From Dudresnaya verticillata (lineage: Eukaryota), in NCBI GenBank assembly GCA_977862235.1, contig OZ374560.1, positions 2,728,001 to 2,792,000 of the forward strand: a stretch of DNA of 64,000 bases, read 5' to 3'. Below, one piece after another: positions 23,201 through 59,717 of the stretch. Within the stretch, counting starts at the first letter, position 1; each line of letters starts with the position of its first letter. Under the pieces are notes generated by a model, which saw nothing but the letters and a program-made list of their open reading frames with translations, had not been told where the DNA came from and searched no databases. A program made the position numbers and the translations under genes.

Positions 23201-25544
23201 ATGCCCGTGAATCCGCACTTCCAGTACGGACAGCCAGGGTCTTCCGACAATGTGGCGCCGGTCGCCGTGGTGGCGGGAGGCGTTCCCGCGGACGTAGCGG
23301 CCAGACGCGACTGGCAGGTGCGCACAGACCTGAACCATGTGCGGCCTATGGCAGGGGCCAATCGGGATGAGATACGCCGCTTGGGCGGGAAGAGGGCAGA
23401 AGCCAAGGCTTGGAACACGTTGATACGTACGCGGGTGAGTCAGCTCTCGATGACGACGTTGCGTATCTCGACCCCGGGACTATTCCCCTTCGACTTAGCG
23501 CGCGCTCGTTGGCGCTGGGAAGTGCCGTGGGTGGAGAGCATGTCGAGCTTCATGAGCGATCGGAAGTACGTCCTGGACGAAATTGCGTTATCCGACAAGT
23601 ATGACCTGCGGGCTGTAGGGCATAAGCGCCCCTTCATTCGCGCGGGTCGGGACAACTTCCCCTACAACACCATGCGGATCACACTTCCGAATAACCGAAC
23701 GACGTACAAGTACCATCTGGATACGCCGCAGACGGCTCTCCCGCACGAAGCGGCCCGCTTTGAGCGTCGCCAGCGGCATCGGACCGGCTGTTTGGTTCCG
23801 TGCCATTGCCAAGAGGTTACGGCTCTTAAGCCTGAGATGTTCACGAGTAAGTATCCTCAGATACCACCGGACTACGAATACTACGAGTATCGTATTCGAT
23901 GCTGGTGGGAGTGCCCACCATCGTCGCCTACCTAGGCTTGGAGTTGGTGCAGTCGTCCAACACGAACCTGTTGTGACTCCTCTACCGGCACGAACGGATC
24001 GTGCTGATCACCCAAGTCTTCATGTACGAGGCGCGGAAAGGCCGCCTATTCTTCATCAACCAGAAGATACGTGATGATATTCGCGAGATCGGCTCGTCGG
24101 AGTTTACGGCCAATGCAGATGATGCCGTTGACTTCGACTCGCTCCTTCTCTTTGTTGAGCGTATCGTCTGGCGAAGAGCGTCGAAGCAAAATCGGTTCTT
24201 GCCCGCAGATACGGGCACTATCACACCGGTGTTTGACTGTGGGGTTTGGGTAGACTTCGACCCTGAGGCCTGGGTGCCGGATATTCCCGAAGACTTACTC
24301 AAGGGTGTCCCAGTGGACCCGGCTTCCTTGGAAGCCGATGAAGGCATGCACCTGCGATCCGGCTTTACCGCGGGATGGGTGTGCAACAACTGGCAAGAGC
24401 CGAAGACGCCTGCGGAGGTGCCCGCGTACGATGCCTTGACCGATGGTCAACCTCTGGGCCCCTACGCCCCTCCGGTTTTTCACGGCCGTAGCAAGGCGGA
24501 CGCCGCGATTCGTGAAGTGTTCCGCCAGCGCGGTTTGGCTGTGAGGCTCCACAACCACTGGAATATCCAGAATCTGACGGTGCACTCCCTCGCGGATTGG
24601 GTAGAAGCAGCCATGGTTGACTACGAAGCCTCGTGGCTTACGGTTCCGGGGCCCATCCATCGTATGTCGGAACATTTCCGAGGCTTGCCCCGTTTGGGCG
24701 AGTCCGCTAAGGTGGAGCGAGACGCGCCTGTCGCGCGAGAAGAGTTGGCCAACACTGCGACCAGTTCGGCTCCAGCGGCATCTACAGCCATCGTTACCGC
24801 CCCCGCGGCCACTGCGTCGGAAGCTCCTGCCGGAGATACTCGACCCAGAGGCCGTCATGGCATCGGTTCAGCTGGCGTTGAGCCCGTCAGGAGGAGGAGA
24901 TAGCGCAAGGCTTGGCCATTCAAGGAGTCACGATACCTGGCACTCCGGGGAGTGCCCCACTTGCCGAGAGACGCGATGATCGCGAGGGCGACGCGGCAAT
25001 GGCGTCTCTTCCTCCTATTTCGGAAGCTACCCTTGGGGCCTTTCCGTCTCAAGAGCCAAAAACAACGGCAGCAGCAACGGCACCGGCCAGCGGGGGAGAT
25101 GAGGATCGGATTGAGCCGGTCGCTCCTGCTGCGACGACTGCTCCAGCGTCCACTTCGGCCCCTGGGGCAGCGATGATGTCTTCCCTGCCGCCGGGTGAGG
25201 CGCCGACGTCACTACCTATTGAAGGCAATGCGATGTCCGGGCCTGGCCCGATCGAGGCTGATTCAGTGCAACTCGTCTCTAGGACGGCAGCAGTAGTCAG
25301 CGCCAGGGTGTCGCCCGATGAGGAGTCGAAAGTCATGCCGGAAGAAGGCGGGGGCCTGGTTAAGACCGAGCTCGTCATTAAGGAAGAGCTCGAAGAGGAG
25401 CCAACTCCTATGGGAACGGGCCCTGCTCAGCCGCGAGTGCGTCGCATCATCCGCGAAGTGCGGTGTATCGTTCACCCGGTTGGTGCCGTGCGTCCAGCTA
25501 ATGTGTACAACGACGAGGTAGTTGACCTGACGGAGGATGAGTAG
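23201..25544 (+). pseudogene. Antisense accessory ORF of element F (disrupted, about 780 codons), unknown function
   Basis: Adjacent ORFs 23201-23935, 24001-24903 and 24912-25544, joined by frameshifts and a TGA. Aligns by eye with the G and B antisense ORFs. Ends EVVDLTEDE*. Confidence 0.75.
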
Positions 25545-26296
25545 ACTCCCATCCTCCTGTTGCTCATTAGGGCGTTTAGCCCAAGAAGTTAGAGCGGGTT
25601 TGCCGCGTAGAAGTTAATGTCTGTGCATGAGTTAAGAATAAAAGTCACTGTTGACGGGGGAATTCGCCAAGCTAATGGCCGCCGCCAACATTGGTCGGGT
25701 TAGTGTTGGAGTTAAAGTGCGCGTCGTGCGCGAGTTAGCCTCGTTGGTTTGTACAGTAGGTCAGGGGCCTCAGCCCTGTTCCAGCTTTCTGGAATAGGGA
25801 GTGAGCCTCCGCTCCATGACACCTGCGCCGTTTGGCAGAGAGAGAAGAGGGCAATTATCCTCGGATTCCAAGCGTAGCGGCGAACGGGTCGAGAACGCCC
25901 CCTAGCGTTGCGTCGAGGCCAGCCTCTAAGGCAGGCAGCTTACTGCCTTCCCCCTCGTAGTGGGGAAGGAGACAGTTATTTCCAAAACAATGCTTGCCGT
26001 ACGTGCGCGTACAATATTCGGTATCATACCGTCGCTAGACAGTGTCCTTTCCCACTTGAGATATATCTCCTCTCGCTGTGCGGCCACAGTACGCCCAACG
26101 GCATCAAGTGCCAGCACTGTGCTATTTTGGCTTACACCTCTGCCCGTGGCATCGGACGGTGCCGCCTCGCATTGTATCAGGCCGTGAAGCCAAAGGGGGT
26201 GTTGAGGCCGAGATATCTCTACCATATGGTAATCCGCCTATCTCCAGGCGCTTGCCAACTCCCGTCCCAATGGGGGAGCTATGTCGCATACGCGAG

Positions 26297-29200
26297 TTAA
26301 AGGGGAATGCACCGTTTGCGATGGTACCTCGCCACGAGGTTGTGAGGAAGGTTCTCTCGGGGTTCCCACGTGTCGTCAGAGGCCGAGCGCTGGTGCCAGC
26401 GGATCTTATACCGTGCCGACTCGGGGTCATAGGACATGATCCGATCATAGACGTGCTCCCGCGGGATAGGGCGCTGATAGCGTGAGAAGCGGCGCTCCGC
26501 TGGCGAAGTCTCAGGCTCTTGCTCAGAACTTTCGCTCTCAACGGCGGGAGGAGTGGCGTTAGTGGGCCTCGCCTGTATCGGCTGTAGTGCGGTCAAGGGC
26601 GCGGTTCCCGATTCGAGGGGGCCTGGTCCAGTAGCCGGATTCGCCTCCATGATAGTAGGGGCTTCACCCCGAGCATCCAGCGACTCGTCAGGGGGAGGCG
26701 CTAGCGTCACTGTGTCTAGGGAGACTGATTCCCGTTCGCCCTTGACTTCAAGGACCACAACGTGCATGCCACGATCCACCACCTTATATGGGCCTAGCGC
26801 CTTAGGAAACAGTTTGCCTTCGCGATCCACGCCATCCACGTCTTTCACCCGAGTCTCGCGCTCTAGGAACACCCAGCTACCAACTCGAATATTCCGGTTC
26901 GCAGGGCGCACCCGTCGGTTGAAGTCCGCATGATAGCGCTTCTGCGCGAGCCTCAAACGGGGGAGAGCTGTGTCCATTAATCGCTCCAATCGCTCTGATA
27001 AGCGTTTCTTGACGTTAGTCGCGGGGACATTAGCAACTTCCACCGTCTCGGATCGCTCCAGGAGCAGGGAGTTCGGGGGATTTGAGATCACCAGGTCGAA
27101 AGGGGATAGCCCCGTGGCTTTGTGCACCGTGGTATTGTACGCAAACGTGAGTGCGTTAGAAAACTCATCCCAGTCACGCTGATTCTCAGCGATGAAGTGC
27201 CTTAGCCCGGCTAGAATGGTGCGATTAAAGCGTTCGGTCTGGCCGTTACTTTGCGGGTGATATGTAGAAGTAAATAGGTTACGCACTTGCAGAATGCTGC
27301 AAATGTTCATGAAGAACTTCGAGGCAAACTCGGACCCATTGTCCGATAGCACATACCGCGGAGGTCCATATACATAGACCCAGTGGTCGCAGAAGGCCTT
27401 AGCGACGGTATAGGCCGTAATCGTCTTGAGCGGAACAGTCTAGGTTAGCTTTGAGAAGCAATCCGTGATCACGAGTAAATACTCATTTCCATTGGTTGAC
27501 TTGGTCAATGGACCTAGAATGTCAATTCCGACAAACTCCAAGGGAGCCGTAGCTGGGAAGAGCTTGAGAAACGAAGTGTGCTTCCTGAGCTTGACTCGTT
27601 CTTTCGCGCACTGGACGCAATTCCGAACGGTTGAGTAGACGGCCAAGGCCATATCTGGCCAATACACTTGCCGGCGTAGGTTGTGAAACATGCGGGTTCC
27701 CCCTGGGTGGCCAGCTAGGGCCGGATAATGGGCCAAATGTAGCACCTTTTCGCGAAGGCTCGCGGGTATGAGAACCTGTATGGCTCCATTCAAGTAAGCC
27801 TTGCGGGCGAGGATCCCTCGTTCGTCTTCCAAGTAACACCCGGGGCTTCCCATATCGAGGCGCTTCTGCACGTCTTGGCAGAACGAGTCTCGTTTTTGCT
27901 CTCGGAGCAGCTCGTCTACAGTAACTTGTGAGAATGTGCCCTCGTCGGCTCGCTTCTCCGCCGCGGTGGCGATGAGTATCCCATGTGACTATAATCCTCG
28001 AGGGGTTCGATGTGCCACGCCTCTAGGGGCTCTATTGTGGTGGGTCTATCCGTGAACAGCATTGGCTCCGCTGAAGTCATTCGGACTGGACCATCTTCCT
28101 CTTCGACTATGAAGCAAGGTATCTCGAGATCAGGCTCCTTGTGGGTATGACCCCATGTAGGGAGGCGAGACACCGCGTCGGCAATCTGGTTCTTACGCCC
28201 CGTCCGGTATTGGACCGTAAAGTCATATTCCAAAAGGCGAAGCCTCCATCTCGCCAAGCGTCCTGACGCGTCAGACATACTCATGATCCAGCGTAACGCT
28301 TGATGATCCATGAAAAGATCGAAGTGAGACCGCTCCAAATAGGGTCGCAATATCTGTACTGCCCATACGACGGCGAGACACTCTTTCTCTCCGACTGAGT
28401 AGTTCTTCTCAGCTTTCGTTAGCGAGCGTCTCCAGAAACCAATAGGGTGCCGATCACCATTCTCATCGGTCTGCATCAGGGCACAGCCCACTTGATAGTC
28501 GCACGCGTCGGTGTCGACTGATAATTGGCGTCCCACTTGCGGCAGCTGGAGTATGGGCGGAGCCACGAGTGCTTTCTTCAGAAGCGAGAAGGAATCTCTT
28601 TGTTCCTCGTTGAACGTCGGGAGGTTGAAATCCACTGTCTTCTGCAGTAATGCGTTAAGCGGCGCAGCGACTCTCGCAAAGTTGGGCACGAACCGTCTAT
28701 AAACGTTGCACAAGCCAAGGAAAGAGCGTAGCTGCGTTTGCGTCTTTGGTTCCCCAAACCCGTCGATGGCTTGTGTTTTCTTCGAGGCGACCTCCAGGAG
28801 GCCAGGGCGGACCACGTGTCCCAGATAATCGACGCTCTTCGCGAAGAAGTTACATTTCTTCAACTTCAGCGATACTCCAGCGTTCTGGAGCACCTCCAGG
28901 ATTTCCTTTACGTGAGCAAGGTGCTCTTTGACGCTTTTGGAGAAGATGATGATATCAGACAGATATACCAAGCACGACTTCCATCTGAATCCAGACAGGA
29001 GAATGTCGACCGTTTGCTGGAACGTGGCTGGTGCATTACATAGCCCAAAGGGCATGCGGCAAAATTGGAAGCATCCAGCGTGACAAGTGAACGCCGTCTT
29101 CGTCTGGTCTCCCTTGGCGACCGGTATCTGCCAGTAGCCAGAATTACAATCAAGCGTTGTGAAGAATTGGGCATCTCCCAGGGAGTCCAGACACTCGTCC

Positions 29201-30672
29201 ATACGAGGCAAACGATAAGAATCCTTGATCGTTACTGCATTAAGCTTTCGATAGTCGACGAAAAAGCGTAAGGAGCCATCAGGCTTATTGGCCAGCACGA
29301 CTGGGCTCGCGAATTCCGACCGCGCGGGTTGTATGACCCCTGCTTCCAACATCTTGGTTACTTCCGCTTGTTCAGCCTGTCGAGCTTTGGGGACTGCCCT
29401 ATAGGGTTGTGAGAAGACGGGCTTCGTCCCTGGTTTGAGCTCGATACGGTGCTCCGTGACTTTGATAGTCCTGAGTTTACCACTCCACATTTCCGAGAAT
29501 GGCCGCAGCATCTTGCGTACTCGACGCTGATCCTTTGGTTCCAGATGTGAAAGGTTTAGGTCTTCGACCGTCATGTTGGCGGCCGAGGCCTTAATGCCTG
29601 GTTTTGGATCCGTATCCGGAGAAAAGGCAGCAGCAAGCCCTGCCCCCCCCACATCGAGCGACGGCTCGTCGGGTTCTTGAGGAGCAGATGGGGCGTCCTC
29701 GAAGGACAGAGCGTAATATGGGGTTGTGGAAGGAGCCGGAATGGCGTGTCCAATCCTCTGGCGTTTGGCCAGTCGCTTCGGGCCTTGAGAGAAATTGGCG
29801 ACCTTGACCCGGAACGGCCGGTTGGGTTGCACTTCGATGATGCCATTTGTGGCAACCAGACCCTGGCGGTCGTAGAGCCGCTGGAATGAATCCATGAAGT
29901 GTACACCTCGCGCCGGGCACGTGACCGTGACCCAGGCTTCTGACGCCGCAGGTATAACAACCGAATGTGCCACGCGCAGGTGTCGCGGTTCGGGAGGACC
30001 AGTGGGGACCTCTTGTGATTCCGTGGGGCGCGAAGCGCGTGGAAGTCCGCATCGTCGGCGTAATATCGGGTGTATGGACCCATCACGCAAGACGGCGCGT
30101 TGACGCTTGATTCATAAGTTATCGACATGGTGGTCGATGAAGGTACAACCCAGGATCACGTCCACGGCGAGTGCTCGGACGACGGTGAAAGGTTGTCGGA
30201 CCGTGTAGGTTCCGATTCGAACGTACAGGGAGATAGTCCCTAAGGTAGTTAGTTTGTGCCGTGAGGCGGAAGTTAGATTCAAGATGGACCGGCCAGAAGC
30301 GATCTTCTTTTGATCCTCAGAGGAAAGAGCACCAGCTCGTATGAGGTTGGGGCCTGCCCCTGTATCCAGGACCGAAAGGACGCGAGAGAGTTCGACAAGA
30401 GAGGTCCCAATGGACGCTGCCACTTTATAGTTATATCGCGACAGCGCGCATATGGGATCCTTACAATACTCATCAAAAGTGCGTCCTCGAGGAAGCCCTA
30501 GAGGGCGAGATAAAATCTTCCTTGGGAGGAGATTTGTGTCAGGTTCCGGTTCCGGCCGATCCGGGAATGACGGGGACGGGTGACCGTCCTCGCTCGATCG
30601 GTCGGGGGACCCCGGGTCGCGTAGCAAGAGCTGCGGTTCGACGGGGTCCAAGGTCCCCCAGTCTAGTTTTTC
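26297..30672 (-). pseudogene. pol: pol of element F (PR, RT, RNase H, INT, chromodomain), disrupted
   Basis: VLDTGAG; TTLDCNSGYWQ; YLSD in place of YLDD; DTDAC...EKECLA; GHPG...CVQC; LSDNG...NGQTERFN; YKIRW...TWEP. Split over several ORFs. Confidence 0.93.
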
Positions 30673-33430
30673 GGCACACGGGCGTGTTTTGTTCATGGGG
30701 ATGCCGGTAAAGGCGGAGGAGGTGGGAACGGTCTGCCACTTGGGCGAGGAGAGCGGGGGTTACTCCGCGGCCTATCCACAGGATGGTTGAGTGCATCGGC
30801 GAACTGCACCTGGGGACTTGTCGGTCGGGGTGCTCCCCTGTTCTCCGGGTGCGGGCTGGCCTTGCCCTCGTTGAAATGTCGGCGTGAATTTTGAGGACCT
30901 GGATCCGAGGGACGCAGCTCATTCGCGAATGATGGCGAGCGGCCCACGATGGACAGCCATTCCCGTTTCTCCCTGGAGAGTTGGGCGTAGTGGTTACGTA
31001 GTATCTGTGAGAAGCCACGCTCGTCTGTTCTTGCCAGATATGGGCAATTGGGCTTTTTATGCCCGATACCCAGACATTCGAAGCAGATGTCATTCGGCCT
31101 ATCCTCCACCACTAACCAGCCGGGACGCTGTGTGCGAGATGGTTGGGCCCACGAGGGAAGCCTCGGATTCTGGTTGGATAGTACCGCACTGACGGAGTCA
31201 TAATAGCTGTCCGTAGCGTCCGACGGGGCTGTGGAGCAGACGCCCGATGTTGTTACGGACGAATCCGGCGCTTGGCTGTCGATGGCCGCCACCACTGCGT
31301 CCTCCGAATCGGAGCTAGTCCTTGTAGAGCCACCACTGTCACTTGACGCGACCTCAGTGTTGGGACGTCCCTGTCTGACCAGTAGCGCCCGTCCGGCCTT
31401 CTTGGATTTAACGGAGGACTTTCGTCGCAACATTGAAGTACCAGAGACACGCTCTCGACGACCAGCGCCCATGAGGGCCCGATGTGAGTCACCTTGGGCA
31501 GTAGCCAGTTCCACATAGTCGGCAAGCTTTGCCGTCCGTGGGTCCAAACCCGAATTGCTCAGTAACGGCTTTGTGGCCGGCAAGAGTCCACGGATGAACC
31601 GGGTAATCAGGTCCTGTTCTGTATACACACCTGCGACCTTTCGAGCCTTATTCTGGAGGCGCCGTGAGAAGGTCACTTCGTCCTCATCCTCGGCTTGTGC
31701 CATACGGTCCATTTCCGAGGCTATCCTCTCGATGTACACGTCCTTCGCATATGTGCGTAGGAGGTAATTGACGGCCTCGGGCCACTCGGAGAATCCTCCA
31801 TTATCATCCCCGGCCACGTCGAAGTTGGCTTCGAACATGTCTCGCGAATCCTTATCCAGGAACTCGGGAAGCACAAGGATTGCTGCTTCTTCGCTTATCC
31901 TGGCTTGGTCCAGTTGGCGCTTCAAAGCGGCTAAGAAGCCAATGATCGCAACTGGGTCACTTCCGTCGAACTTGCGACTCTTCATTACGGACTTGATCCT
32001 CTTGATCTTTTTCGACGTGTCCTCCGTGACTTCTGGACCCTGTATTGGTCCAGGTTCAGCAGACGATAGCGTCGATAAGAGAGAACCTGAATGAAAGCCG
32101 GGTTCTGCGGAGCCAGCTCCTTAACGTCAGAGCGTCTAGGTCCTCGCCAAGAGGGGCGCGATGAACGCCTCGGTGGGGAACTATCCTTTCCGGAGAACTG
32201 CGGCTGACGCCGCTGCTCCGACCGACGTGGTTCATCCCGGTTTCGACGGGATTCAGTCCCTTGACCAGTACGGCAGGTTTTGCAACCGGAATGCGCCGCG
32301 CGCGGGTTGTCCACATCCGAATGGTCGTGCACCGATTCCGCATCGGATTCTCGCCTAGGCGAATGACGTCGCCGGTCTCGAGTTCCTTTTGGCACCGGGC
32401 CCCGGCGTCGCTCCACTTCGGGCGATAGGTTCTTCTCAAGAAGACATAACTGGAGACGAGTCTCGATTATGTTGATCCGACGCCGTTCATCGGCTAGCTC
32501 CTTCCGTAAGAGCGCAATTGCTCGGTCTTGTTCTAAACACGTGGCGTCATTCCCCTCGAGACGAAGGGCCCGAACTGCTTCGGACGCTTCTTCCCGTGAG
32601 AGGCCCACTGCTCGAGTGAGGGGCTCAAAATCTCCGTGGATTGTTTCCACCCGCTCCACGAGCGATTCTACCCTCGCATCGAGTGATTCCATTTCATCCG
32701 CCACTCTCTGTCCTGTATCGGAGTGGCGGATGCGGCCGGTCATTTCCTCTTGACACAAGGTCAGTATCCGCTCATCTCGGCGTCCGGCTGACTCATCGAT
32801 GTAGCGTTGTACACGCGTGAGCGTTTCATCAGCCTGTGCTGCGGCAAGCGACCTGATTTGGGTCGCTACGAGGTGACCAACACTATCAGCGACCATTCGG
32901 TGGATCTCCGATTCCGTAAAGCATCGGACGTCCTCCGAATTGGTATTCGTTCGGGTCGGCTGCCCATTTCCAGGCGCCGAGTCGAGCTCTGTCGGTGCCG
33001 CGTAATCGGTCGATCGTCCACTGGGGAGTCACCGTGATTCCGGCATCACTTCTGGACCCTGGTCCTCATTCCCATCCACGTGTGTGGATGTTTGTGGTTC
33101 TGACCGGGTCATTTTTCCTTCAAACGAGGCCGAATCCCTTCCAGGGCTCGGCATTAAACCGGGAGTAGTCCCTAGAACAAGGTCGGGCCTAGAACTTCCA
33201 ACCAATGGCGGTCGTTCGCGGTTTGATCTTGGTTCGGGACCATCTTCATCGGGGGCGTCACCGTCTATATGGCGTCGCCCCAATCGCCCGTCCGAAGGGC
33301 TGCGCCTTAGCGCGGCAGTCCCCGAACGGGTGGTAACGCCCGTGATGCGGACTGAGGAAAGACTTCCGGCACAACTGCCACCACGGCCGATGAGGCTCGG
33401 CCTGGTTGTATCGCCATTCGATGTCGGCAT
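30663..33430 (-). pseudogene. gag: gag of element F, disrupted
   Basis: Fragments 33029-33430, 31985-32896 and 30693-31985; CCHC knuckle CFECLGIGHKKPNC; similar to G gag (LSYRRYRL vs LSYRTYRL; FDGSDPV vs FNGSDPV). Confidence 0.85.
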
Positions 33431-34949
33431 CCTTCCGATGGTATGGGACTAATAACCCGTCCCAAAAATAGGTAGTAATTCCGGAAGGACCGGTGGGTCG
33501 ATGGGACTTTTTCCCGATGCGCCAACCGGCGTTCCGTAACTGTTTCTCGCACGAGACGATGTGTCGAAGGGGAATCCTGTAGTGCAAACGTCGATGACGG
33601 ACACCGCCGAGCAGTTCAGGGCTCGGTGGGTAGCGACGCCTGCGGCGATGAGTGGCCTCGCCGTGGGCGTCTGTTGGTAGAGCGGTTGACTCGCCTGGGG
33701 CGGACTGTAAACGCCCGAGGCGGAAAAGAAGAACAAAAGAAAACAGAAAGGGAACACGTCGAGGACGGGTAGAGACGTGGAAGCACGGAGGTAGACGCTT
33801 AGCCGTAGGCAGCGGTAGGGTACGCGCGTGCTGAACGGGGAAGTCTGGACCAAGGCCGGCTTGCCGGGGTTTACTGTGACGTCTGAGACGGATCCACTAA
33901 GTACAGGATTTCCTAGCGGCGGCGACGCGGATGTACGCGTAACGCGGGAACTCGGGACACGTGTTGTCCCGAGGCGCGTCTGACAGATCCGTCCGTCATG
34001 CAGCCGCGCTCCTGACAGATCACGCGTAGCTTCCCCGCTCGAGTCCTTACACTTACACGTGGATTACTTCCTTACAGCCGCATGCGCCCCATGGCGCGAG
34101 CGATCTCGATCCGCACCAATCCCGATCCAGTCCGGATTCGGGCCAGCGATGCGGATGCGCCAGGCTTACAGGCGCGTGCCTTACACTCCTTAATCCCGAT
34201 GTGGGATCCCGATGTGGGATCCCGATTGGATCCGGATTCGGGCCACGCTTACAGCGAACGTTCCCGCCACTGCGCCATGCGCGTACGCGTGGCGCCGTAC
34301 AGTGGCCAGGCTCAGGCGTGCGGTCTGTACGCCCAGCAAGCCGTTCTGGCCCAAGTGGGCAGCGGCATGCGTCGGTGACGTGTTTGCGCCGCGGGCGGGT
34401 TGAGCGCGCCGTTGGCGGTCGTCCGTCGGTAGACGCTGCATATCAACGCTTGAAAGCGAAAACGGGGGACCCCCCCTGGCACTACACGACCCCCTCCGAA
34501 AACGCGACCACGTCAACCTGCTTCAGCCTGCCTGCTTATCCGCATCTGCGTCTCTTCCAGTGCCGATCGTGTCGGTCACCCGCGTCTTCACGTCTGCGTT
34601 TGCCCGCCCTTGGCGTTGGTTGAGCCCCGCCAAAGACGCACGTTCAGTTGCCCATCCGCCGTTGGCGCAGCAACAACTCCCTTCGAAGACGTGTCGTTGA
34701 CTAACTTCGCCAGTGGCGTGCGTGAAACCCCGTCGTTTACGTCTTATCTTGTGCAAGCGTGCGTGCGCTTATCGCCTAGGGCGTTTCTTTGAGTTCCGCA
34801 TTCGGCGTTGTTCGGTCTAGCGTCGTTGACGTGTGCCTTGTTTGCTTCCGCCTTTGGCGTAGTTGACTCGACTTCGGAGTCCGAGACCGTCGTTGACGTA
34901 TCGTGTGAAGTCCGCCAGTGGCGTGTGATTACGCAACGTCTCAGACGTA

Positions 34950-37243
34950 ATGGCGCAGTTCAATGGCCTGCAAGTGGCTGCGCCTTCGGCGGCGCCGGTG
35001 TATCCGTCCCCCTTCGACTTTTTCTGGAGGACGCCCCGCAACGATGCGCGATTGTTCTCGCGGGCCCCCTGGTTCGACCAGGAGGCCCTGCGACACGAGG
35101 ATCTCATCACCCATTACGCTGTGAGCGGATTTTTGCCAGGGGAGTTGCCCCTGGCCGTCGTGTGGACGAACGAGTGGCGCCATCGGTGCGCCATTCCGAG
35201 GGGTTGGCTGCGTATTGCCGCCGGCCAGACGCGTGCAGATGCACATGCGCGTTTCGTCGTTGACGTGTATCGGCGGTTTACCCGCTATCCGGGGTCGGTA
35301 TTGACGCCTACCGTCTTTGAATTTGACGCAGGGCAGTACCGCATAAATAGCGAGTTTGGGTATGGGGACCGTCTTGGGACGTTGTCATTAAGCCATGTGG
35401 CTGTTTCGGCTGAGCCGCGGGTGCTTCAGGAGATTAACCTCCTTGGTGTACGCTTGAAAGCGGATTTCCGATACTTGCATAGGACGGGCACCTTCTATTG
35501 GGAGCGCTGCGTCCGTTGGGATTGCGAAACGCGCCGCCGCAAAGGCGTTTTTGTGCCGTATCAAGATACGCAAGTCGATCGCATTGAGCGGGAAAAGTTG
35601 CCGCATTGCTTCATTCGCGTCCCGCCGATGTGGCGGGACTTTGAGGTCTGCGAGGGCTTTGCGGCTGAATTGCCTCCGTGTGTCACGTATATTTGCTCCG
35701 AGTTGCGGACGGATCCGTACTCCCGATGTTGGATCGTATTTTTCACCGAGTGGGTCGTCAACGTAACTTACGCATGGATGTGGGAGGTGTATGACACCTT
35801 CCGGCTCTATTATGTGCCGCCACGCGTAGTCAGCCTCCTTGGTGGGCTTGATTTGACCGAAGTGTTGGGTGGTGCCAGGAACTGCCAAGAGTTCTGGGAT
35901 TTACGCCAGGTGGCAGATAACGTCAACTGGGACGACCCGGCAGCTGTGCCGCCGGGAAACCGGCGCCGTAAGGCAAACCGTCCGCGTTACGCGATGAGTA
36001 GAAATTATTCCGCCTGTGGCGATTGGGTGTGGTGCAACCCGTGGACCAAACGTCTTACGACGGAGAACATCGCTGAGAGTCATCGTCGTACGGACCGCTT
36101 CACGCCAGCGAATCACCAACGTGGGTTGCGCAAGAATTGCGACTTTTCGGGGGATTTCCCGCCTTGATGGCGGAGGAGGATGCGTTTCACGCTAAAAGCG
36201 GACCGGTTAACCCGTCTGGGACGGACGTCATTACGCCTATGGCGGTTGAGCTTACTGCGGGGGCGACAGCTCCCGCGACGATTTCGCCAGCGGCGGTAGG
36301 ACCGTCGGCTGTTGTGCCTGTTGGCTTGCCGTCGGTTGCGCCACTGGATCTCTCGGCGCCCGTCAATGACGGTGATGGTGATGCCATCATGGCTGCGCCC
36401 ATGGCGAGTTCTGCGCCGGTAGTTACGCCTCAAGGCGGAGTGTCTAACGTCGCTGACGGTGCGCATCGCCCTCCTGCAGTGCCCGAGTGGACTGAGGAGC
36501 AGCGCCGCACGGTGCTCGCATTCTTGCGAGCCACCGGTGTCGTCACTGACGGGTCGGGCGGGTCATCCACGACGCCCCTCGGGCACTCGCTGCTGGCTGC
36601 TCTGCAGCCCAGCGTTGCTGCGGTTCCGGCGTCGACCGTCGTTGCGACTGTGCCGTCTAACGACGAAGGTGCGGCGTCTAATGACGGAGTGGCGAAAAAG
36701 CCTTTGTCGCCTAAGGCGGGTTGTGCGGGTTCGTCCGCCATTGCGTCCACTGACGTTGCTAGAAAAAGTCCGCCAAAGGCGAGTGCGGTGGTAGCGCCTA
36801 CGGCGGTTCCGCAGGCTCCAGTGGCCTCTTCGTCGGTGACGGATGTTGATCGTTCAACGCCCTTGGCGGTTAATGCGGTCCCGTCACCGGAGGTGCCGGG
36901 GCCGTCAACTTCGCCCAAGGCGGTTGAGGATGCTCCGCCGCCGAAGGCGAGTGAGCTTCCTTTTGTAACGCCTAAGGCGGGTTGTGACTATAACGTTGCG
37001 CCTATGGCGGTTGACGAACAGTCGTCGCCTAAGGCGGATTGTGAGACAGGTGCGTCGCCAGCGGCGGATGTCGCGACTTCGACAGCAGTGATTGTGGCGG
37101 GTCCCTTGCGGTCCGTTCCTGCCCCTGCCGCGAGCGCACCGTCGGTGACGGAAGACGACCTCTACGAAGAGGCGTTAAGAGAATCCGCCAATGGCGTTGG
37201 GGATGATGCCCCACTTGAACCGTCTGCGACGAAAAAGGCGTAG
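34950..37243 (+). CDS. Antisense accessory ORF of element G (two overlapping ORFs, probably one ~765-aa gene with a frameshift near 36150), unknown function
   Basis: ORF 34950-36167 is aromatic-rich and globular-looking; ORF 36137-37243 is A/P/S/V-rich with repeated PKA. Confidence 0.8.
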
Positions 37244-43210: not shown

Positions 43211-45752
43211 GCCTGCGGCGGTTGTAGCGGCGCTGTGTAGCGATTGACCACCGTCGGATGACGTTCTGCTGCATGCGGCATAGGTCCGCCTCGTGGTGAT
43301 GGGGGTCGCGCTGCACGGCGTGCTGCTTCGCGCGCCGCGCGTTCTTTGTACCGAGTGTACGCATCGGCGGGGACCCCCGCCTTCTCGGCGTCTGTTAAGC
43401 CTTCGTAGTTGGCGATCGCTTTCATATACTCGCTCATGCGGAGGAAGCAGTCCGGTGCCATGTGACCACGGGCATAACACTGATGACAGATCAACTGTCT
43501 GCGAGCGTCTTGACGGAGCGGACCCCTGTCTTGCCAACCTGGCCTCGCCCGATGGACGTGGGGGGCATACTCCAAGTACGGGACGCGGGCACGACGGAAC
43601 GCCCAAAGGCGAGTGTAGGATCCATTGCCTCTGTGTCCTCGTCTTCGACGTAGCTGTCCGTTGGTAACGCTGACGTTGGCACTGATGCTTGTTCATCGGC
43701 CAAATAGAGATCGCCATCGGCGTGTGTTTCCATATCGTCTGCATGACGGGTGACATCACGGAACTCAACGGAGGTCTCCGCTATCATAGCGCGCGCGGCA
43801 GGCTTCGTGCCCCTCGTCTGTTGACGTAGAACCGTTCGGTTGTCGCCAATGGCGGGGCGCAATGCGCGAGCGGCTTGGGCCGGGGCCAATATATCCCGTC
43901 TTACTGACGTCGAGCCGGCCCTGCCGTGTCTTGCGCGTTGCGCGTCACCTTCGTCCTGTGCGAAGTGGACTAAACGTTCAAAATATAACTCCGCCCTCGG
44001 CGTTTCTTCGCGGAAGCGGGCCACTAAGGACCTGATCGTCGGGTCTAACCCATGGATGTACAGTGTCATCTTTTCCCATCCGGGATAAACGTTACCGCAA
44101 CGAATACATGCGCCGGCGAGTCTCATGCCGTAAGTCGTTTCGTCTTCGCCCTGCTTCTGGCTAGTCGACCGCAGGGCGAGGACAGCGTCTCGAATCGCCG
44201 AAGGAGTGGCGTATGTGCGGAGTAGGTAGTGCACCGCCTCCGGGTAAGATGATACGCCGCCGCGATGGCGAGAGGATGTCGATTTGACGGAGCGGAATTG
44301 CGTGGCTGCCGTGCCCTTTAAGAAGTACGGCAGCGCGACGAACGCTTGTGCTTCACTCATCTCTAGCGTGTCCGCTTCATCCGCGAACCGCGTTAAGAAT
44401 TCGAGGACCATGACGGGGTCGCTGCCGTTGAAGGCGGCGTCCTTCATCGTTAACTCGAGTCGCTTGATATGGTCTTTGACCTTCCAGGTTTCGCGTCCAG
44501 AGCGCTTCTGTCCCACGTCTTGGAGACGGTATGTGCGGTACGATAGAAACTGGTCGAAGAGAGGATTGGAGGGGCTTAGCTCCTTCAGTCCCTTGTATCG
44601 CTTTCCGCGGGGTCGCATTGCACTGCCGTGAGCCACGTTGCCGTCATCGTCTGACGACGAAGAGTCTGTTGACCCGCCGTCACTAGACGTGTCTGAAGAG
44701 GATGAGGATGAGTCCCCTCGTCGGCGACGGTTCTTCTTCCGTCCATGACGCGACTTGCGGCGATTCTTGCCCCGTCTTCTGCGATCTTTGCGTCTTCGAC
44801 GGTCTTCCTCGGAACTATCGTCATCCGACGGCGGCCCTTGGCGCCATTTGGCGGTTTCCAGTCGCTCTAAGCGGGTTGCCAATCGTTGAAAACGTTCGCG
44901 TGAATTCAGTTCCGACTGGGAATGGACCGTCAATGCCGTTGGCTGCTGAGCATCTACCCCTTGGTTGGGGTTCGTCATCAGACGGTCGAGGTCGGAACGG
45001 AGTCCTTGAAGGGCACCGTCCCGATCTTCTTCCAACGTCTGTAGACGGCTGAAGATACCTCCGACATTGTCGTCGAGCATCTCCGCGAATCGAGCGAGTA
45101 AGTTACCGTCTTCGGCGACGCATACTTCCCGAATCCGCTCGCGAGGTATCGTGAGATTCCCAACGCGGGCGGATGCTGGGGACGCCACTGGCGGTGTGCG
45201 CGCGGAGGTCGACGCCTGCGGCGGACCTCCCGTGCTGCGCGGTTGCGCTAACGGCCTGGCCGGTGAACATCCGGCACTGCCGTGGGGTGGGGGGCAGCAG
45301 CCCCTTGGGATTGGTGATTCGTCTACGACGTCGCGCCCCGCAGGGCGTTCTTGGTCGTCGTCGACGGGTAAGGTTGGTTGGTGGACCGGAACTTCCGGTT
45401 GTTCCTCGACGATGTCGGCTTGGGCTCCGTCCTCGACGGGTCGCTGTTCGGCTTGTACCGTGTCAGCGGAATCCACGTGCGAGTGGTAGGTTCGGAGGGC
45501 CGATTCGTTGGGAACGGTGGTGCGGATGACGACGGGTATCGGCGGGGGAGGTATTTCTCCCCTGTTGAGCGATATATGGGAGTGGTCGTGGCCTGGACCG
45601 GTCGGGAAGGCCGATGCGATCTCGGGGCTCACGAGGCGCCCAGACCTCGTTGTCATCCGCTGTAGCGACCGCTCCGACGCGGGGACACTCCCCGGCGTCG
45701 ATGACGGTCTTCTTGAACTGGGGCCTCGCGACGGCGGCGGTCGTGAGGCCAT
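43201..45752 (-). pseudogene. gag: gag of element G with one frameshift near 43550
   Basis: 753-aa ORF 43491-45752. The knuckle CHQCYARGHMAPDC is in the overlapping frame 43201-43575, which ends AKN*. Confidence 0.88.
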
Positions 45753-45777
45753 AATGCAGTCGTAGAGTTGCTTGAAC

Positions 45778-46141
45778 GTCGTGGACGATTAGCGACGGAT
45801 GTCTAGAGACGGAAGGTCGGACGTCGCACGACGGAGTAACTCGTTGAAACGTAGCACACTTCTAGGTCGTCGTGGACGATTAGCGACGGATGTCTAGAGA
45901 CGGAAGGTCGGACGTCGCACGACGGAGTAACTCGTTGAAACGTAGCACACTTCTAGGTCGTCGTGGACGATTAGCGACGGATGTCTAGAGACGGAAGGTC
46001 GGACGTCGCACGACGGAGTAACTCGTTGAAACGTAGCACACTTCTAGGTCGTCGTGGACGATTAGCGACGGATGTCTAGAGACGGAAGGTCGGACGTCGC
46101 ACGACGGAGTAACTCGTTGAAACGTAGCACACTTCTAGGTC
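45778..46141. repeat. Four identical 91-bp tandem repeats abutting the PBS of G
   Basis: GTCGTGGACGATTAGCG...CACACTTCTAGGTC starts at 45778, 45869, 45960 and 46051. Confidence 0.97.
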
Positions 46142-49100
46142 GGGAGACCAGTTGTAGTGCAAACGTCGATGACGGACACCGCCGAGCAGTTCGGGGCTCC
46201 GTGGGTAGCGACGCCTGCGGCGATGAGTGGCCTCGCCGTGGGCGTCTGTTGGTAGAGCGGTTGACTCGCCTGGGGCGGACTGTAAACGCCCGAGGCGGAA
46301 AAGAAGAACAAAAGAAAACAGAAAGGGAACACGTCGAGGACGGGTAGAGACGTGAAAGCACGGAGGTAGACGCTTAGCCGTAGGCAGCGGTAGGGTACAC
46401 GCGTGCTGAACGGGGAAGTCTGGACCAAGGCCGGCTTGCCGGGGTTTACTGTGACGTCTGAGACGGATCCACTAAGTACAGGATTTCCTAGCGGCGGCGA
46501 CGCGGATGTACGCGTAACGCGGGAACTCGGGACACGTGTTGTCCCGAGGCGCGTCTGACAGATCCGTCCGTCATGCAGCCGCGCTCCTGACAGATCACGC
46601 GTAGCTTCCCCGCTCGAGTCCTTACACTTACACGTGGATTACTTCCTTGCAGCCGCATGCGCCCCATGGCGCGAGCGATCTCGATCCGCACCAATCCCGA
46701 TCCAGTCCGGATTCGGGCCAGCGATGCGGATGCGCCAGGCTTACAGGCGCGTGCCTTACACTCCTTAATCCCGATGTGGGATCCCGATGTGGGATCCCGA
46801 TTGGATCCGGATTCGGGCCACGCTTACAGCGAACGTTCCCGCCACTGCGCCATGCGCGTACGCGTGGCGCCGTACAGTGGCCGGGCTCAGGCGTGCGGTC
46901 TGCACGCCCAGCAAGCCGTTCTGGCCCAAGTGGGCAGCGGCATGCGTCGGTGACGTGTTTGCGCCGCGGGCGGGTTGAGCGCGCCGTTGGCGGTCGTCCG
47001 TCGGTAGACGCTGCATATCAACGTTTGAAAGCGAAAACGGGCCCCCCTGGCACTACAAATCCTTTCCAGCTTGAACACGGTGCTCGTACGTAAGCCTTGG
47101 TAGACTTCAGGGCTACCAGCGATTTCTCCAAGAGGACTCTCCAACTTGTGCGCTGGCACGGCCTGTACAAAAGGACGGTGTTTTACCAGGATGCACCGAT
47201 AACCTGTCGAAGCAGTCTTGAGGGGGGCGTCAGTCACGCCCTCAACGGCCACTTCTAAATGGCCACTAGGGCCGGTTGTAATTCCAAGAATAAACGTGCT
47301 CGCCACTGATTTGACGCTACTCAGCAGCTTGAGATGGAGCGTAGAAACCGTCAACAATCCTGACTAGGGTTTCAACACCGGTTGGCCGGGAAACTCGTCC
47401 TTGACACGAAACAACGTCTTGCGTCCTGTACTCGTGAGTTAACCAACCAGGGTTGAGGAAGAAAGGGGAAACCAACCCAGAACACTTCTAGGTCGGGAGA
47501 CCAATGTAGCACAACGGGTCCAGCCCAGGAAGAGCAAAAAGAACAAAGAACACCTGTCCGGAACCGTAGTGCTCACAGGCAGCTCGGGTGTGGTAGAGGC
47601 TTGGTAGAATGGCGCTAGGCCAGGAAAAAGGAAAAGGAAAAAGGGGGACACGACCCGGTATTCCGCAGGGAACCTGCTGTACGGTGACTAGCCTGCAGTC
47701 GGCGTCCAAAAAGGGAACGGGAAGCGCCCGGAATCCAGAAAATGGTCAAGACCGAGAAACTCCCCGTGGGGTTCAATCAGGGGTGCCCTGCTATTCAGGG
47801 GACCAATAAATAGGGCTTGTGCCCGTGCTAATACTAACTACTATAGTGTACTCTACACAAATTACATTGAGCAGTGGGAGGCGGATCTACGCCCCTGTGG
47901 CGGCGTATAATCGGGAAATAGCCCAACGCCGCACCAATGATCAGGCGCCAATTGCGCGTCTGAGGCGCAGATGATTTCGCGCCAGGCGCCAATCACATGT
48001 CGCATCATGGCGCAGTCCAGCAATGCCAGCGCCTTACAGGGCATTGGCCCGTTACAACTTACAGCGTCGAGCGCCCACTTGGCGCAAATCGCCGTTATGC
48101 CACAAGAACGGGGGCTACCCTAGAAAGAAAGAGAAAACAAAGGGAAAATAAGAGAAAAACAGGATTCTGTACGGTGAAGATGGGTAGCGTACGTACTGGA
48201 GTCCAGCCTAGCGACGGCGTCGATAGGGTAGGAGGTTATGTCTCGCTGGGCCCACGCTAAGCCGTTTATAGTATGAGGGCGCACCTCAGGGCCCTAATAA
48301 ACTATATACGAGGCGGATGTGCCTTGGTGGCGGATTAAGGTAGTGGAAGGGGGCGTGCCACTTGGTATTGCGTGGTACGCACAAGTCTATAATTATCTAC
48401 TAAAATATCTTCTGTCAGTCTCTTGGTAGTGCGGCTTGACAGTGTGCGCCAAGGGGACACACGTGTGCACGTATGTGCGTTGTCGTTGTGAGGGGGCCAT
48501 CCTTGCTGGCAGCGAGAAACTGTCAGCTGGGATGGCTTGCAAGGGGATTTCCCCAATATCATTGCTGGCGTACGCGCGTTGTGCCAGAGCCCATTACACA
48601 AATTGGCTTTGAGCTCAAACGTACGCGCAGCGGTTGATCCGCATGTATCGGCCGTTTCGGCCCGTCGTCCGCAGTCGAGCCGCGGGCGACGCCCATTATG
48701 AAGAACTCTTCAGTAGTGCGCGAAGGCCATTTGCACCACACAAATCATTGCTACTTTATCACTAACAAGTTGTCAGGTCTGCTTTCTCGCCAACAGGAGC
48801 ATCGTCGTCGATGATGCAACATAACTTATAATTTACAAGTCATCGATCATTCAGCATTTAGGGTTAACTAAACGAGGCTAAATTTAGCCAAGAAGCGAAA
48901 GGTACCCTGGAAACTAGATCCTTTTATCAACTGCAACTTTATTATTGGATCCGTTGCCGAGGTTGACCGGCTCAGGAGCATTGCGGAGCACGTGCTAACC
49001 GACAATCGCAAGGCGATTACCACCAAGTTTTTGAAGCTATAATATTCCTCAAAATGAATGAACAGGTTTGACATCGCATTACACAAACGTTAACATGGAT

Positions 49101-51965: not shown

Positions 51966-52099
51966 GTGCCAACCGGGCTCCGGTAGCCACAGGGCACGCA
52001 CGCGATCGCCGCGCCGCACAGTACCCATCAAAGCGCTTTGTTCTTCGAAGAGCACTACTGAGCGACGCGCGTGGTACTGCGGGCACCGCCCACCACAAC

Positions 52100-55000: not shown

Positions 55001-55339
55001 AACCCAGGTATGAGCCGGCACACAGCGAACAAGCTCATGCGATGGGCGCTCAAGCTGAGCGCCCATCGATGCGTCATCGAGCACCTCCCTGGCGAGCAAA
55101 ACGTATGGGCGGACATACTAACGCGCTGGGCCGTCAAGCCCAGAGACAGAGTGAAGTCGGTCAAGCTAGCCAGCCTGTTCTACGCCCCAATTACTCCCGA
55201 GACTAACGAAGAGTATGACTGGCCAACTCGTAACGACTTCGCTAAGGCTCAGAAGGAAACAACAGAACAACCGCCGCATGGTTTCAGCGAGAAAGATGGA
55301 ATCATCCAAGACAATGGAGGTGTCTTCTGGCTTCCCGTA
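52100..55339 (+). mobile_element. Element C: gag-pol of a distinct Ty3/Gypsy lineage, frameshifted and interrupted by element B
   Basis: ATG at 52100; knuckle-like CLNKACHKHHRVMDC; protease LGDYGA; RT FAKLDMCHAYWQ and WLDD; RNase H LFTDAS...EKEAF; frameshifts near 53140, 54475 and 54780. Confidence 0.92.
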
Positions 55340-56345
55340 TGTAGTATGTCTAGAGCACCACCGCGTACGGCAGCCCAACGAGACCCCAAGAAGACCACAA
55401 AGACCTGTCGGATTTGACCAAAACTGGCCAGAACGTAGAACGGACCTGCGCGCCGGTAGCAAGCGTGGTAGAGCGGGAGCGCGCAGACGAAGTCGTGACC
55501 AGTATCCGTGATGAGGACGGAAAATGGCCAAGTCGGGGGTTCAGTTGCTAACTTTACTCCCAACCTCTGGCGGGACGGCTTCGTACCTTTTTCGGCTTAG
55601 CCGTAGTGTGTGGCCAGCTAAGTAGGCCCAAAATTGGCCATCAGAGCTAATCTAGAGCTATTCTACAGTTAGTGGCCGAGGTTACTCCGGTCGGCCATAA
55701 TATCTACTTGTGTTCCGGCGTCGGGCCAATGTTGTACCCTTACCAGACTAAACCAAGTACTTGTTCGTTAGTGGTTGGCCAAATGAGTTAGATTTTCCCT
55801 TGATTTTTCCACTGTCTTCCCTTTGATTCACCTTGCGGCCAAATCCAATTTCCATTTGTGTCCTGGCCGAGAACCGGATCATACGTGTACAGCGGGCCAC
55901 GTGGTGCGCTTCAGTGTCGTAGGTGGCCACGTGTGAGCCACGTGTACAGTCGGTGGCCACGTATCATACTTGCGCGCGCTCACCGCCGTCCGCGCGCCGA
56001 CGGCGCAACTTCATTGGCCAAGTGTCTTCGTTTGGTTGGGCCGATCGTACAGTTGGCCCGTCGATTTGCTTCCTTTCGGCGGCCCCCTTGCCGTTGCACC
56101 ACAGAGCCCCCTTCGCAAGCGCGGACTCCTGGCCGCGAGGGTTTCATCTGGCCATATCAGCGCGCGTGATCCCCGCCGCTACCCCTCTCCCTACATCCGG
56201 CCATCACCATCTTGCTCACACTTCACTTCCCCTTACCAACACTTCCCAACACATCGTGCGCACGCCCGCGCTTCTTGCCAACTTGTGCGCCCTTCCCTCG
56301 CTTCGGCCTCCACGTGCGCATCCGGCCAGTCGCTCTTGATGGCGG

Positions 56346-59300
56346 GTGGCCAAAGCGCGCCCGCGTCGCACAGCATCGGCTAAGAAGAAGACTGTTCGGC
56401 CGACCATTTCTTCCAGCTCGTCATCTACACCGCCGTCGAGCGACGAGGAAGTGGCTGTGGCCAGAGCGAAAGCGACCACGAAGAAGACTGGCCAGACGTC
56501 AAGGCCGCGCGGGATGAAGGCGCCTTGGGCATCTTCCGCCCCAGCACCCAAGACCCCAAGTGGCAAGCCCTTCGATCCGCTAGTTGCTGTAGCCACTACC
56601 ACAGCGGCGAAGCCCATCAAGACTGGCCAGAAGAAGAGTGTTGCTGCCTCCGCTACTCCGGTCATGGCGCAAGCGATGCCCGACGTTGGCACCGACAAGA
56701 TAATGCAGGAGATAGCGGCCATGCAGAAGAGGCGCGAAGCTGAGGAGCAACAATTGGCCAGTCTGAAGAAGAAACTTGCGGATGCGCAGAAGGCCAAGGT
56801 GGTGCGCAGTGTGACCATCGTCGCATCATCTTCATCAGAGGAGGCAGCGGCGGCAACAGGCCAACTTAAAAGAGGTAAGCCGACAGCGTCTTCTAACGTC
56901 GGTCCGCTAGCCAAGGAGACGAAGCAAACTGGCCAAAAGACAGCAGAAGCGCCTGAGAAAGGGTTGGTACAGGCCGAAGTGAAGCGTCTCGAGGCGAAGA
57001 AGTCAATGCCGGCCCCAAACACTTCGGTGCCAACGGCCATTAATCCGACGCCACCGCCGCTGGCCAGCGCTGTTGAGAAGGCTGTTATTGCCATCTCTCG
57101 TCCCCTGGTGGCTCAAGCTACCACTGCAGCAGCTGAAGAAGTAGCTGCGGCTCAACCCGAGGTTGCCGATTCGGCCATGGTATTCGTGCCCGCTCGAGAA
57201 GAACCACTGACCAGCAAGCAGGAGTTACCTGAAAAAGTTGAGAAGGTTGGGCCAGAGCAGAAGAAAGGAGACAAGTTGGGGCAGAAGGCTGCAGAAGCTT
57301 TGGCCAATATTCCTGTGCCACGCAAGTCGTCGCGTTCGGCCACTCCGAGCGCTTCAAGGAAATCCACGCCGCGACTACGTTCGGTGCCTTCGCCTTTCAT
57401 GCCGACGGCTGCGAGTCGTGCGCGCGAGCTGGTCAAGTTAAACATCGGCAAGCCCGCTGTTCAGGGTCCTCCCACAAAGAAGCAGCGGCTGCCGCCTAAG
57501 GAAGTTGACCAGACACCTCGCGACTAAGTTATCGACGTCGATGCTTCTACACCAATCCCGCCGGCCAATCTTATGTCAGACGGCGATCGTCGTCGCTTTG
57601 TGGCCTTGCTCCCCGACGCCGATGAGCTTAAAACTGGCCATTCTTCGTCTACGCCTTCTGTAGGCGTGCAGCCCAAGTCATCTGGCCAGGTTGAAGATCC
57701 TCGCGCTATGGAAGTTACTCCGCGTGAAGAGACCTTAGATATTACCAAGACTGGCCAGAGTTCAAGTGCTGGCCCCTCTGCTCCTACTCATCCGGATCAG
57801 GAGCCGGCTTCGCATAATCGTGCTGCCGTGCCTTTCCGCTGCGACATTCCGCCGGGACTAGAAGATCATGATGGCCCCGAATTAGTTTTGGATGAGCGAT
57901 TGCCTGGGACTTCCATCTGGCCAACGCGTCCTCGAGTGGATATTCCTTATGCCGAGTTGGTGGCCAATAGTGACAAGCTGGACATGATCCGCGTGCGAGA
58001 AAGCAATTGCCCTCTCAACGAGGCGTGGCATCAATATCGCAAATCGCATGACAATGGCCATCTCTACTGGATCCCTTCGGAGATTGAGTGCGACCGTGCC
58101 TTCTTGCTGTGCGCGCAAGACGTGATGTTCGTCCACGGGGCTTGGCTGATGTTCAAGGGCAAGTCTAATGTGTACCCTCATACGTCCACATGGTATTACG
58201 CCTTCCCTCACGCGTGGATGTTTGAGCGCTGGGAGCAGACGACCGTGCGAAACGCGAAAATGGCCAGTACAGACCTTCGTCGCATCATAGCGCCGGGAGA
58301 TTGGCTGGCCCATCGCACGGGTGGTAGCTATGTCTACCACGGCAGCACTCGTGGCCAAGAAGGTTTTTGGCCCCCTTTCGAATACTTCCCTAGCGTTCCC
58401 GCTTTTCTCTGGAGGGAGTGGCCATCGAAAGGAGAAGCTAGTCTACTTAGCCCGCTGGCTTATTATTTTGTTGGCCAGTATCGTCGTCGTGCGCTCGACC
58501 CCACCTGGGTTGAGTGCTTCCAAGAAACCGCTGTCATAGAGTTGCACATAATGGCCAGCATCTTCTTCCGCTATGAAGCACAGGCGTCGAAGAGAATGTG
58601 GTGGATGTCTTCTCAGGCCATTGCTCGACGAGTGGAAGTGGTGAAAGATCTTACCTACCTCCCCGTCAGCCAGGAGCATCAGCATCAGTTCAATCATGTA
58701 TATTGGCCAGATGTTGTGTCGCTGTATGAGAAGTTGGCCGACACCGTGCGGCACCGGGACCATTTGTTTCAACGCAGGGCTGGCCATGATGAGAAGTATT
58801 GCGGTTTCGACTGGAACAAACAAGTGACCTTTCGGCATGGCAGTAGCTTTGGAGTTGAAGTGGCCAACGACGCTTCCATCGTGCGGGCCAGCATCTTGCA
58901 TCCTCATCCGCATGTGGTGGCCGAACTTTCTGTGCGTGGCCATGTTAACCAAATGTCTTTCGCCAACGTCTTGCGGCAGCTGGACCAGAGCTTTGGCCGC
59001 CTCAGCGATACAAAGCGTGGCCAGACCGATGAACTCAACCGCGTTCGTCGTCATGTTGATGAAATGGAAGAGGTAATCAGGCGGGGTGAAGAGCGGTTGG
59101 CCAATATTAGAAGGCAGAAGGACCAAGTCGAGGCCGAATTGCAGGCCACAAAGGAGACGTTGGCCAGATCTAACGAGCAGGGTCTTGAGTGGAAGAGGCA
59201 GCGCGATCGCTGGTGCGATGAGACGCACAATCAACAGGCCTTACTTGACATGGAGCGCAATCGTGGATTTCATCAGCTGGCCAGTTTGCGCGCAGCTTAT

Positions 59301-59717
59301 GCGCCCTCCGTCTTTGGCCAGATGCCTCAGTTTCCTCTGTCTTCCTTGCCTACGCCTGCGCCGGGTATGCCGCAATATCCTGGGGTCTCAGTGGCACCGG
59401 CCACAACCCCCACGCCATCTCACGCTGGGGACATCAGCAGTCATCCACGTGCGCCGTCTCGACCGGCCGATTATCAACCAGAGCCAACTCGTCCGACTTT
59501 GTCGGCTCCGCCGACTCCTGTGGCCAATGTTGCTCAGCCTGGCCAGGTCCCTGGAAGCTTATCTCTGCCGGCCACTTCGCCTTTTGTGACGCCGCCAACC
59601 GTCCCTGCGACGGCCCCTCGTGTCCCCGCGACAGCGCCTCGTGCGCCTTCGCAGTCAAGGAGCAGAGAGCCCTATGCTTCGGGTTCTCCTCGCTCACCAA
59701 GTCCTTATGGCCGTTAG
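56346..59717 (+). CDS. Antisense accessory ORF of element B (about 1120 codons with one in-frame TAA at 57525-57527), unknown function
   Basis: ORFs 56346-57527 (K/A/T/P-rich) and 57573-59717 (aromatic-rich domain, coiled coil, Pro-rich tail) are in the same frame. Confidence 0.82.

Follow-up and report, generated by a model that had tools for sequence, protein, structure and literature searches.

A conserved antisense gene between integrase and the 3' LTR of divergent chromodomain Gypsy retrotransposons in Dudresnaya verticillata

A 64,000-nucleotide stretch of the Dudresnaya verticillata assembly (contig OZ374560.1, positions 2,728,001 to 2,792,000; here the window, with positions counted from its first base) is GC-rich and carries retrotransposons nested in one another. 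Three of them, which we call F, G and B, are minus-strand Gypsy elements with a chromodomain (by Pfam, below the cut-off in B), and each has a further gene on the opposite strand, between integrase and the 3' long terminal repeat (LTR). In F and G this is almost certainly a selected gene of the elements themselves, and the gene of B probably belongs to the same family. We tentatively read F, G and probably B as carrying an old retrotransposon-borne protein family, likely made from its own transcript, that may act as a soluble nucleic-acid- or chromatin-binding helper favouring expression or integration.

The antisense genes lie on the plus strand between the terminal polypurine tract (PPT; 22623 in F, 34487 in G, 56104 in B) and the stop codon of the chromodomain-integrase frame (26297, 38462 and 60632, respectively). 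Their position, strand and span are as described in an initial annotation of the window, but the single open reading frames (ORFs) of 2.3-3.4 kb reported there are in fact broken. The F gene (23201..25544) occupies three frames with three breaks (23201-23935, ~23890-24903 with one stop, and 24882-25544). Frame changes occur near 23.9 kb and 24.9 kb, and an in-frame stop at 23974-23976 falls within a conserved block, which agrees with the frameshift at about 23920 and the TGA noted earlier. In G, a frame of 405 codons (34950..36167) encodes the conserved folded core, and a different frame (36077..37243), likely the remainder of the same gene, encodes a low-complexity tail. The stop of the core overlaps an ATG of the tail frame (36165-36169), which makes stop-restart translation possible; decay is the simpler explanation, given that core and tail form one frame in most full-length relatives. 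The B gene (56339..59717) comprises a Lys/Ala-rich N-terminal part, an aromatic-rich core (~57800-58970), a coiled-coil-like stretch and a Pro-rich tail. Its reading is interrupted by a stop at 57525-57527, and the frame open over 56340-57527 is not the one set by the first ATG (56339). Since the antisense genes are broken and the gag-pol genes of F and G are broken too, we regard all three elements as decayed copies. We reject the idea that the genes are chance open frames opposite pol, because they have no overlap with it and their conservation is at the protein level.

Direct comparison of the genes reveals little. BLASTP between G and F gives E-values of 0.010 and 0.020, and between G and B at least 3; a word-based protein search with G returned two relatives, and two with alignment. 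When the 390-residue G core was searched among 1.84 billion representatives, it matched 413 protein clusters at E ≤ 0.001, 155 of them at 1e-10. We examined the best 150 of the 413, and from these built a 401-position profile of 77 relatives with at least 250 matched residues. The score of G against this profile (373 bits) is circular because G was the query, so F provides the independent test. F matches in two adjacent frames, over 66-248 (49 bits) and 238-367 (27.5 bits), with hhalign probabilities of 97 and 96. As the profile was built from relatives of G and matches F in two adjacent pieces, the two genes are homologous. A six-frame scan of the window with the profile found no match besides F and G.

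The common core had initially been traced by eye through all three genes. It stands for F and G, and is suggestive only for B, where the overall p is ~0.005-0.05 and every test falls in the register of that first alignment. The B protein scores 0.1 bits in hmmsearch, below threshold, and 20.7 bits in hhalign, compared to 20.6 for the 95th percentile of 100 shuffles and 20.9 for the reversed sequence. Glocal alignment to the conserved block gives Z-scores of 2.6-3.0, equalled by three of 200 shuffles (p ~0.015), and among ten unrelated window proteins used as decoys one reached a Z of 4.0 on the full profile. A widened profile aligns its positions 229-312 with B residues 300-390, a result equalled by 19 of 1000 shuffles (5 of 1000 without null2; p ~0.005-0.03). 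On these sequence comparisons, homology of the B gene with those of F and G is likely. A serious, if less probable, alternative is that the B gene is unrelated and was acquired independently in an equivalent position. No homology test is clearly passed, the domain order differs (long N-terminal part, coiled coil), and PMC7264820 reports that unrelated antisense genes have arisen repeatedly in this location. However, all tests lean one way and in one register, the primer-binding site (PBS), the location of a second PPT and an ATG-free leader are common to B, F and G, and the pol of B is as near to the F and G pols as these two are to one another.

The same arrangement occurs in independent DNA, in a single case. 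The sole outside locus, L001, came from a metagenome scan (one of 62 candidates) and encodes an intact member of 748 residues (424 bits) and, tail to tail with it, an RNase H-integrase-chromodomain frame that is likewise intact. A PPT and an LTR end lie upstream of the gene, so the layout equals that of F, G and B. Further locus searches were negative, with 0 of 71 metagenome candidates for the relative P0002, and 0 of 11 and 0 for viral contigs. The 20 clusters looked up among the G-core matches are unnamed entries from ENA, JGI or Logan; the cluster of P0002 is labelled 'hypothetical protein'.

Divergence within the family is high (median pairwise identity 29%) and has the signature of a constrained protein. 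Over 385 codons, G and L001 share 27% amino-acid identity, and their nucleotide identity by codon position is 0.45, 0.51 and 0.28, with 42 of 56 four-fold third bases different. Similarity is significant by tblastx in plus frames only (E 1e-31), and blastn finds no match. The codon pattern, the confinement of tblastx matches to plus frames and the lack of a blastn match indicate that conservation acts on this protein. A third gene on the sense strand was considered and rejected, as tblastx in minus frames gives E ≥ 0.006. The earlier proposal of an old, selected, element-encoded accessory protein is well supported for F and G by the low median identity, the saturated third positions and the layout of L001; B is a likely member.

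The core (~390 residues) is predicted by AlphaFold2 with high confidence (predicted local distance difference test, pLDDT, 92.0; predicted template modelling score, pTM, 0.90), as is its C-terminal half (pLDDT 94.6, pTM 0.90). The predicted structure is compact, irregular and mostly helical, with many short helices, long ordered loops and few strands, and is flanked by Pro/Ala/Ser-rich regions that are predicted to be disordered. There are 42 columns conserved at ≥80%. Arg, Glu and Asp account for 14 of these, and Cys, His, Ser and Lys are absent from the set; the family profile has no Cys column even at ≥55% conservation. Profile residues D129, R134, E138, E196, R197, R200, E237 and D360 are near-invariant. 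F retains seven of them. In two of the best columns, the residue in G is not that of the family. No membrane segment is apparent, with four of 77 relatives reaching a 19-residue hydropathy of 1.8 and the G core reaching 1.13. Outside the core, basic clusters occur in eight of 42 full-length relatives (shuffled mean 2.9, maximum 7). A two-helix motif of ~40 residues is present in 28 of 71 C-terminal tails (P0003-P0152) and in L001 (2747-2872, E 1e-4). Its apparent resemblance to a helix-loop-helix DNA-binding unit is unsupported by Pfam and the PDB.

Sequence-family, PDB, Foldseek and BFVD searches named no relative, consistent with the initial view that the domain was not a recognised one. Among 94 members, Pfam, NCBIfam and PHROGs returned only single-member matches at E > 0.003. 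The TRP28 domain (PF04195) was detected in none of these 94, none of the 37 long members and none of seven window pieces. The best match among PDB sequences (E 0.018) lies within the low-complexity tail, and Rfam gave no match. Foldseek found nothing at E ≤ 0.001 in the PDB and nothing in BFVD, although a missing match does not prove a new fold. In a wide VIA structure search, the best matches were weak, at Z 2.3 for the core (root-mean-square deviation 4.5 over 124 aligned residues) and Z 2.5 for the C-terminal half (5.5 over 134).

The regions in front of the antisense genes may bear on how they are expressed. The plus strand is ATG-free before the first ATG for 585 nt in F, 582 nt in G and 555 nt in B, in each case entering the 3' LTR, and the minus strand of these leaders has six, three and seven ATGs. 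Dinucleotide shuffles are ATG-free in 26, 38 and 130 of 1000 trials, respectively. The F leader (22616..23200, +; no ATG in 578 nt on the plus strand) is likely a 5' untranslated region (UTR), and the leaders of all three elements fit a long 5' UTR that starts in the 3' LTR. The sequences somewhat favour an antisense mRNA driven by the 3' LTR in F, G and B. Such a separate message, with a leader of 0.5-0.6 kb, would be transcribed from the 3' end of the element. L001 speaks against a 3' LTR promoter as a general rule: six ATGs precede its gene, and a TATA-like word lies nearby (767), as for an internal promoter. The antisense promoter of Grande is described as internal (PMC7264820).

A second PPT accompanies the gene. 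In all four elements, the best match to the element's own PPT falls within the short stretch that separates the stop codon of pol from that of the antisense gene. The clearest case is L001, where the tracts at 227-242 and 3016-3031 form an exact 16-nt duplicate, 20 bases past the pol stop (0 of 200 shuffles). The G copy (38302..38317, -) has a 13-nt exact run, again reached by 0 of 200 shuffles. The PPT-like copy in F (25946..25961, -) is the best in 10.9 kb and has a 10-nt exact run, reached by 22 of 200 shuffles, and the weak copy in B (59862..59877, -) is the best in 7.9 kb with a 9-nt run, reached by 47 of 200. Since each copy tracks the PPT of its own family, though silent sites are saturated between families, the second PPT is likely maintained rather than a relic. 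In Ty1, HIV-1 and EVADE, internal PPTs serve as primers for the plus strand (PMC7197481). Plus-strand DNA synthesis may be primed at both tracts here, which would help to copy the extra 3-4.5 kb. The Bongo3 chromovirus of Beta vulgaris likewise has an extra PPT just downstream of the chromodomain (PMC3605345). The available portion of that account does not mention an antisense gene, whereas in the present elements the two PPTs bracket one.

F and G are complete elements, with TG...CA-ended LTRs, PBS, PPT and a 5-bp target duplication; for B these features are seen at the 3' end only. F extends over 22036-48104 (-), and its LTRs differ by 3.1%. Nested inside its 5' leader is G (33578-47057, -), whose LTRs differ by 0.9%. 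The 3' LTR of F (22036..22622, TG...CA) differs from the 5' LTR (47505..48104) by 18 mismatches over 587 aligned bases and one 13-nt gap; that of G (33578..34486) differs from the 5' LTR (46153..47057) by 8 mismatches in 905. The B 3' LTR (55340..56103, -) differs by 3 mismatches in 764 from an LTR at 19932-20695. The terminal PPTs of F and G are at 22623..22638, a purine run adjoining the LTR, and 34487..34502 (both -). The 5' LTRs of F and G are each followed by a PBS, identical in the two, and one PBS is common to G, F and B (46137-46152, 47489-47504 and ~19916-19931, respectively). Exact 91-bp tandem repeats (45777-46142) lie beside the PBS in the 5' leader of G.

The F gag-pol (26297..33028, -) encodes Gag, protease, reverse transcriptase (RT), RNase H, integrase and chromodomain in several broken frames (Pfam RVT_1, RT_RNaseH, Integrase_H2C2, and Chromo at 28.9 bits). 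That of G (38462..45788, -) is broken upstream of RT (RVT_1, RT_RNaseH, rve, and Chromo at 34.9 bits). B pol (60632..63790, -), identified by Pfam, includes RT, RNase H, integrase and a chromodomain-like end (Chromo E 9e-4, below cut-off), and the element then leaves the window. The pol order is protease, RT, RNase H, integrase; the protease matches are weak (E 0.03-0.045), and the protease of B lies outside the window. Chromo matches are above cut-off in F, G and L001. Chromodomain Gypsy lineages are also reported from outside the chromoviruses (PMC12477816).

Positions 1-22754 of the window are a tandem array of ~5.7 copies of a 3956-bp unit, the first five of which differ by 0-7 mismatches. 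The unit is chimeric, combining a B-type LTR and PBS, an integrase piece from another Gypsy family, and the F 3' LTR with 132 bp. The array is either a very recent amplification or an assembly artefact. The five bases to the right of its B-type LTR (19932-20700) are the same as the five to the left of the B 3' LTR (55335-56103). Because these flanking bases match, the array contains the other end of this B insertion, which implies a larger segmental duplication. A Pro-rich ORF with a helical end (2803-3666, -), repeated through the array, is from its position probably the start of B gag. Another Gypsy family (51875-55339, +), with a gag-like ORF, RT and RNase H and no chromodomain in the parts present, is split by B. 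At ~49900-50990 (+) lies a putative decayed cytochrome P450-like fragment, assigned from motifs in its translation.

The extra antisense genes found in LTR retrotransposons have posed an unanswered question for decades, and none is described as having a known function (PMC7264820). Retand TRP28/PF04195, maize Grande gene23 and rice RIRE2 occupy the same long region between pol and the 3' LTR, and like the present gene the Retand/Tat antisense genes are reported to be old, conserved, of unknown function and without relatives beyond the elements (PMC11963269, PMC7264820). The brtn gene of Boty from Botrytis cinerea also has a comparable layout (PMC7264820). The parallel to Tat/Retand drawn at the outset holds for layout and stops there. 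The Retand lineage, from flowering plants, does not belong to the chromoviruses, whereas F, G and B carry chromodomains and lack TRP28. Accessory genes are also known from Plavaka (PAG1-3) and Sola1 of red and brown algae and from VANDAL anti-silencing systems, where they are proposed to act on the element that carries them, by binding or modification (10.1101/2025.02.11.637652, PMC12477816). These are DNA transposons, with ParB, methylase, SET and 2OG-oxygenase domains, none of which was detected in the present family. PAG1 has no known domain (10.1101/2025.02.11.637652). The available parts of PMC2774666, PMC12477816 and 10.1101/2025.02.11.637652 describe no such gene. A literature search found no account of the family, although subscription papers, Repbase/Dfam or preprint supplements may hold one. 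The layout is thus already known (Retand, Grande, Boty), and the protein family appears to be undescribed.

What, then, might the protein do? A binding or regulatory role is the one we favour over an enzymatic or structural one, with slightly less than even confidence. The soluble protein would act in trans on the DNA, RNA or chromatin of its own element. The binding-helper role is favoured because Grande GENE23, a nuclear protein with an antisense transcript of its own (PMC7264820), and Retand TRP28, with predicted DNA binding (PMC11963269), are analogous. Several observations weigh against this view. The net charge of the core is near neutral (median -1), and a simple basic cluster is missing in 34 of the 42 full-length relatives. 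The tail motif is non-significant in the window copies, where shuffles score as high in 14 of 200 trials for G (best spot 36506), 20 of 200 for F and 119 of 200 for B. No functional homologue or motif indicating a role emerged from the searches. B stays borderline, with no relatives of its core in a word-based search of proteins of 400-1276 aa. In addition, the second PPT is non-significant on its own in F and B, L001 has its upstream ATGs, and genomic context exists for one outside member only, the other relatives having come without DNA.

Alternatively, the core may be an enzyme of unrecognised fold, such as a nuclease or an eraser of DNA, RNA or histone marks, that counters host silencing. 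We think this unlikely, but it is the better of the other explanations of function. The domain is compact, with 390 residues, and has near-invariant acidic and Arg residues, seven of which are kept in F. Enzyme cargo reportedly occurs in orchid Gypsy elements, and algal transposons carry it as well (Plavaka PAG2/PAG3; 10.1101/2025.02.11.637652). However, conserved Cys, His, Ser and Lys residues are lacking, nucleotide- or metal-binding motifs cannot be recognised, and the Arg/Glu pairs could be structural salt bridges. A structural or movement factor that joins the particle or aids cell-to-cell passage is distinctly less plausible. The folded core has long disordered flanks, a combination that occurs in some viral structural proteins, and B and P0002 end in coiled-coil-like stretches. 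Yet env-like genes are on the sense strand and encode a transmembrane helix (PMC7264820), whereas the present gene is on the opposite strand in four of four elements and lacks one. It is very improbable that the gene is a captured host gene or a roleless passenger from a family of mainly host genes, despite the missing context of nearly all relatives and the three broken window copies, given that it keeps its place and strand in elements only 56-59% identical in RT-RNase H, is intact in L001, shares its broken state in F and G with their gag-pol, and has hundreds of divergent clusters with no named host protein among those looked up.

A bolder and doubtful reading is that an entire chromodomain Gypsy lineage has a PPT-bracketed antisense cassette, whose product, of new fold and with hundreds of divergent members, is an anti-silencing enzyme or a chromatin-targeting factor. 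If true, this would be an undescribed class of retrotransposon counter-defence gene. The family is large, deeply conserved and confidently folded, and at least one of its natural members is intact; it is therefore amenable to expression, structure determination and assay. Direct predictions about replication intermediates and transcripts follow from the paired PPTs and the ATG-free leaders. For annotation the finding is relevant too, since genes of this kind are labelled host 'hypothetical proteins'. For retrotransposon biology, the gene would represent a new family of accessory proteins and possibly also a new fold.

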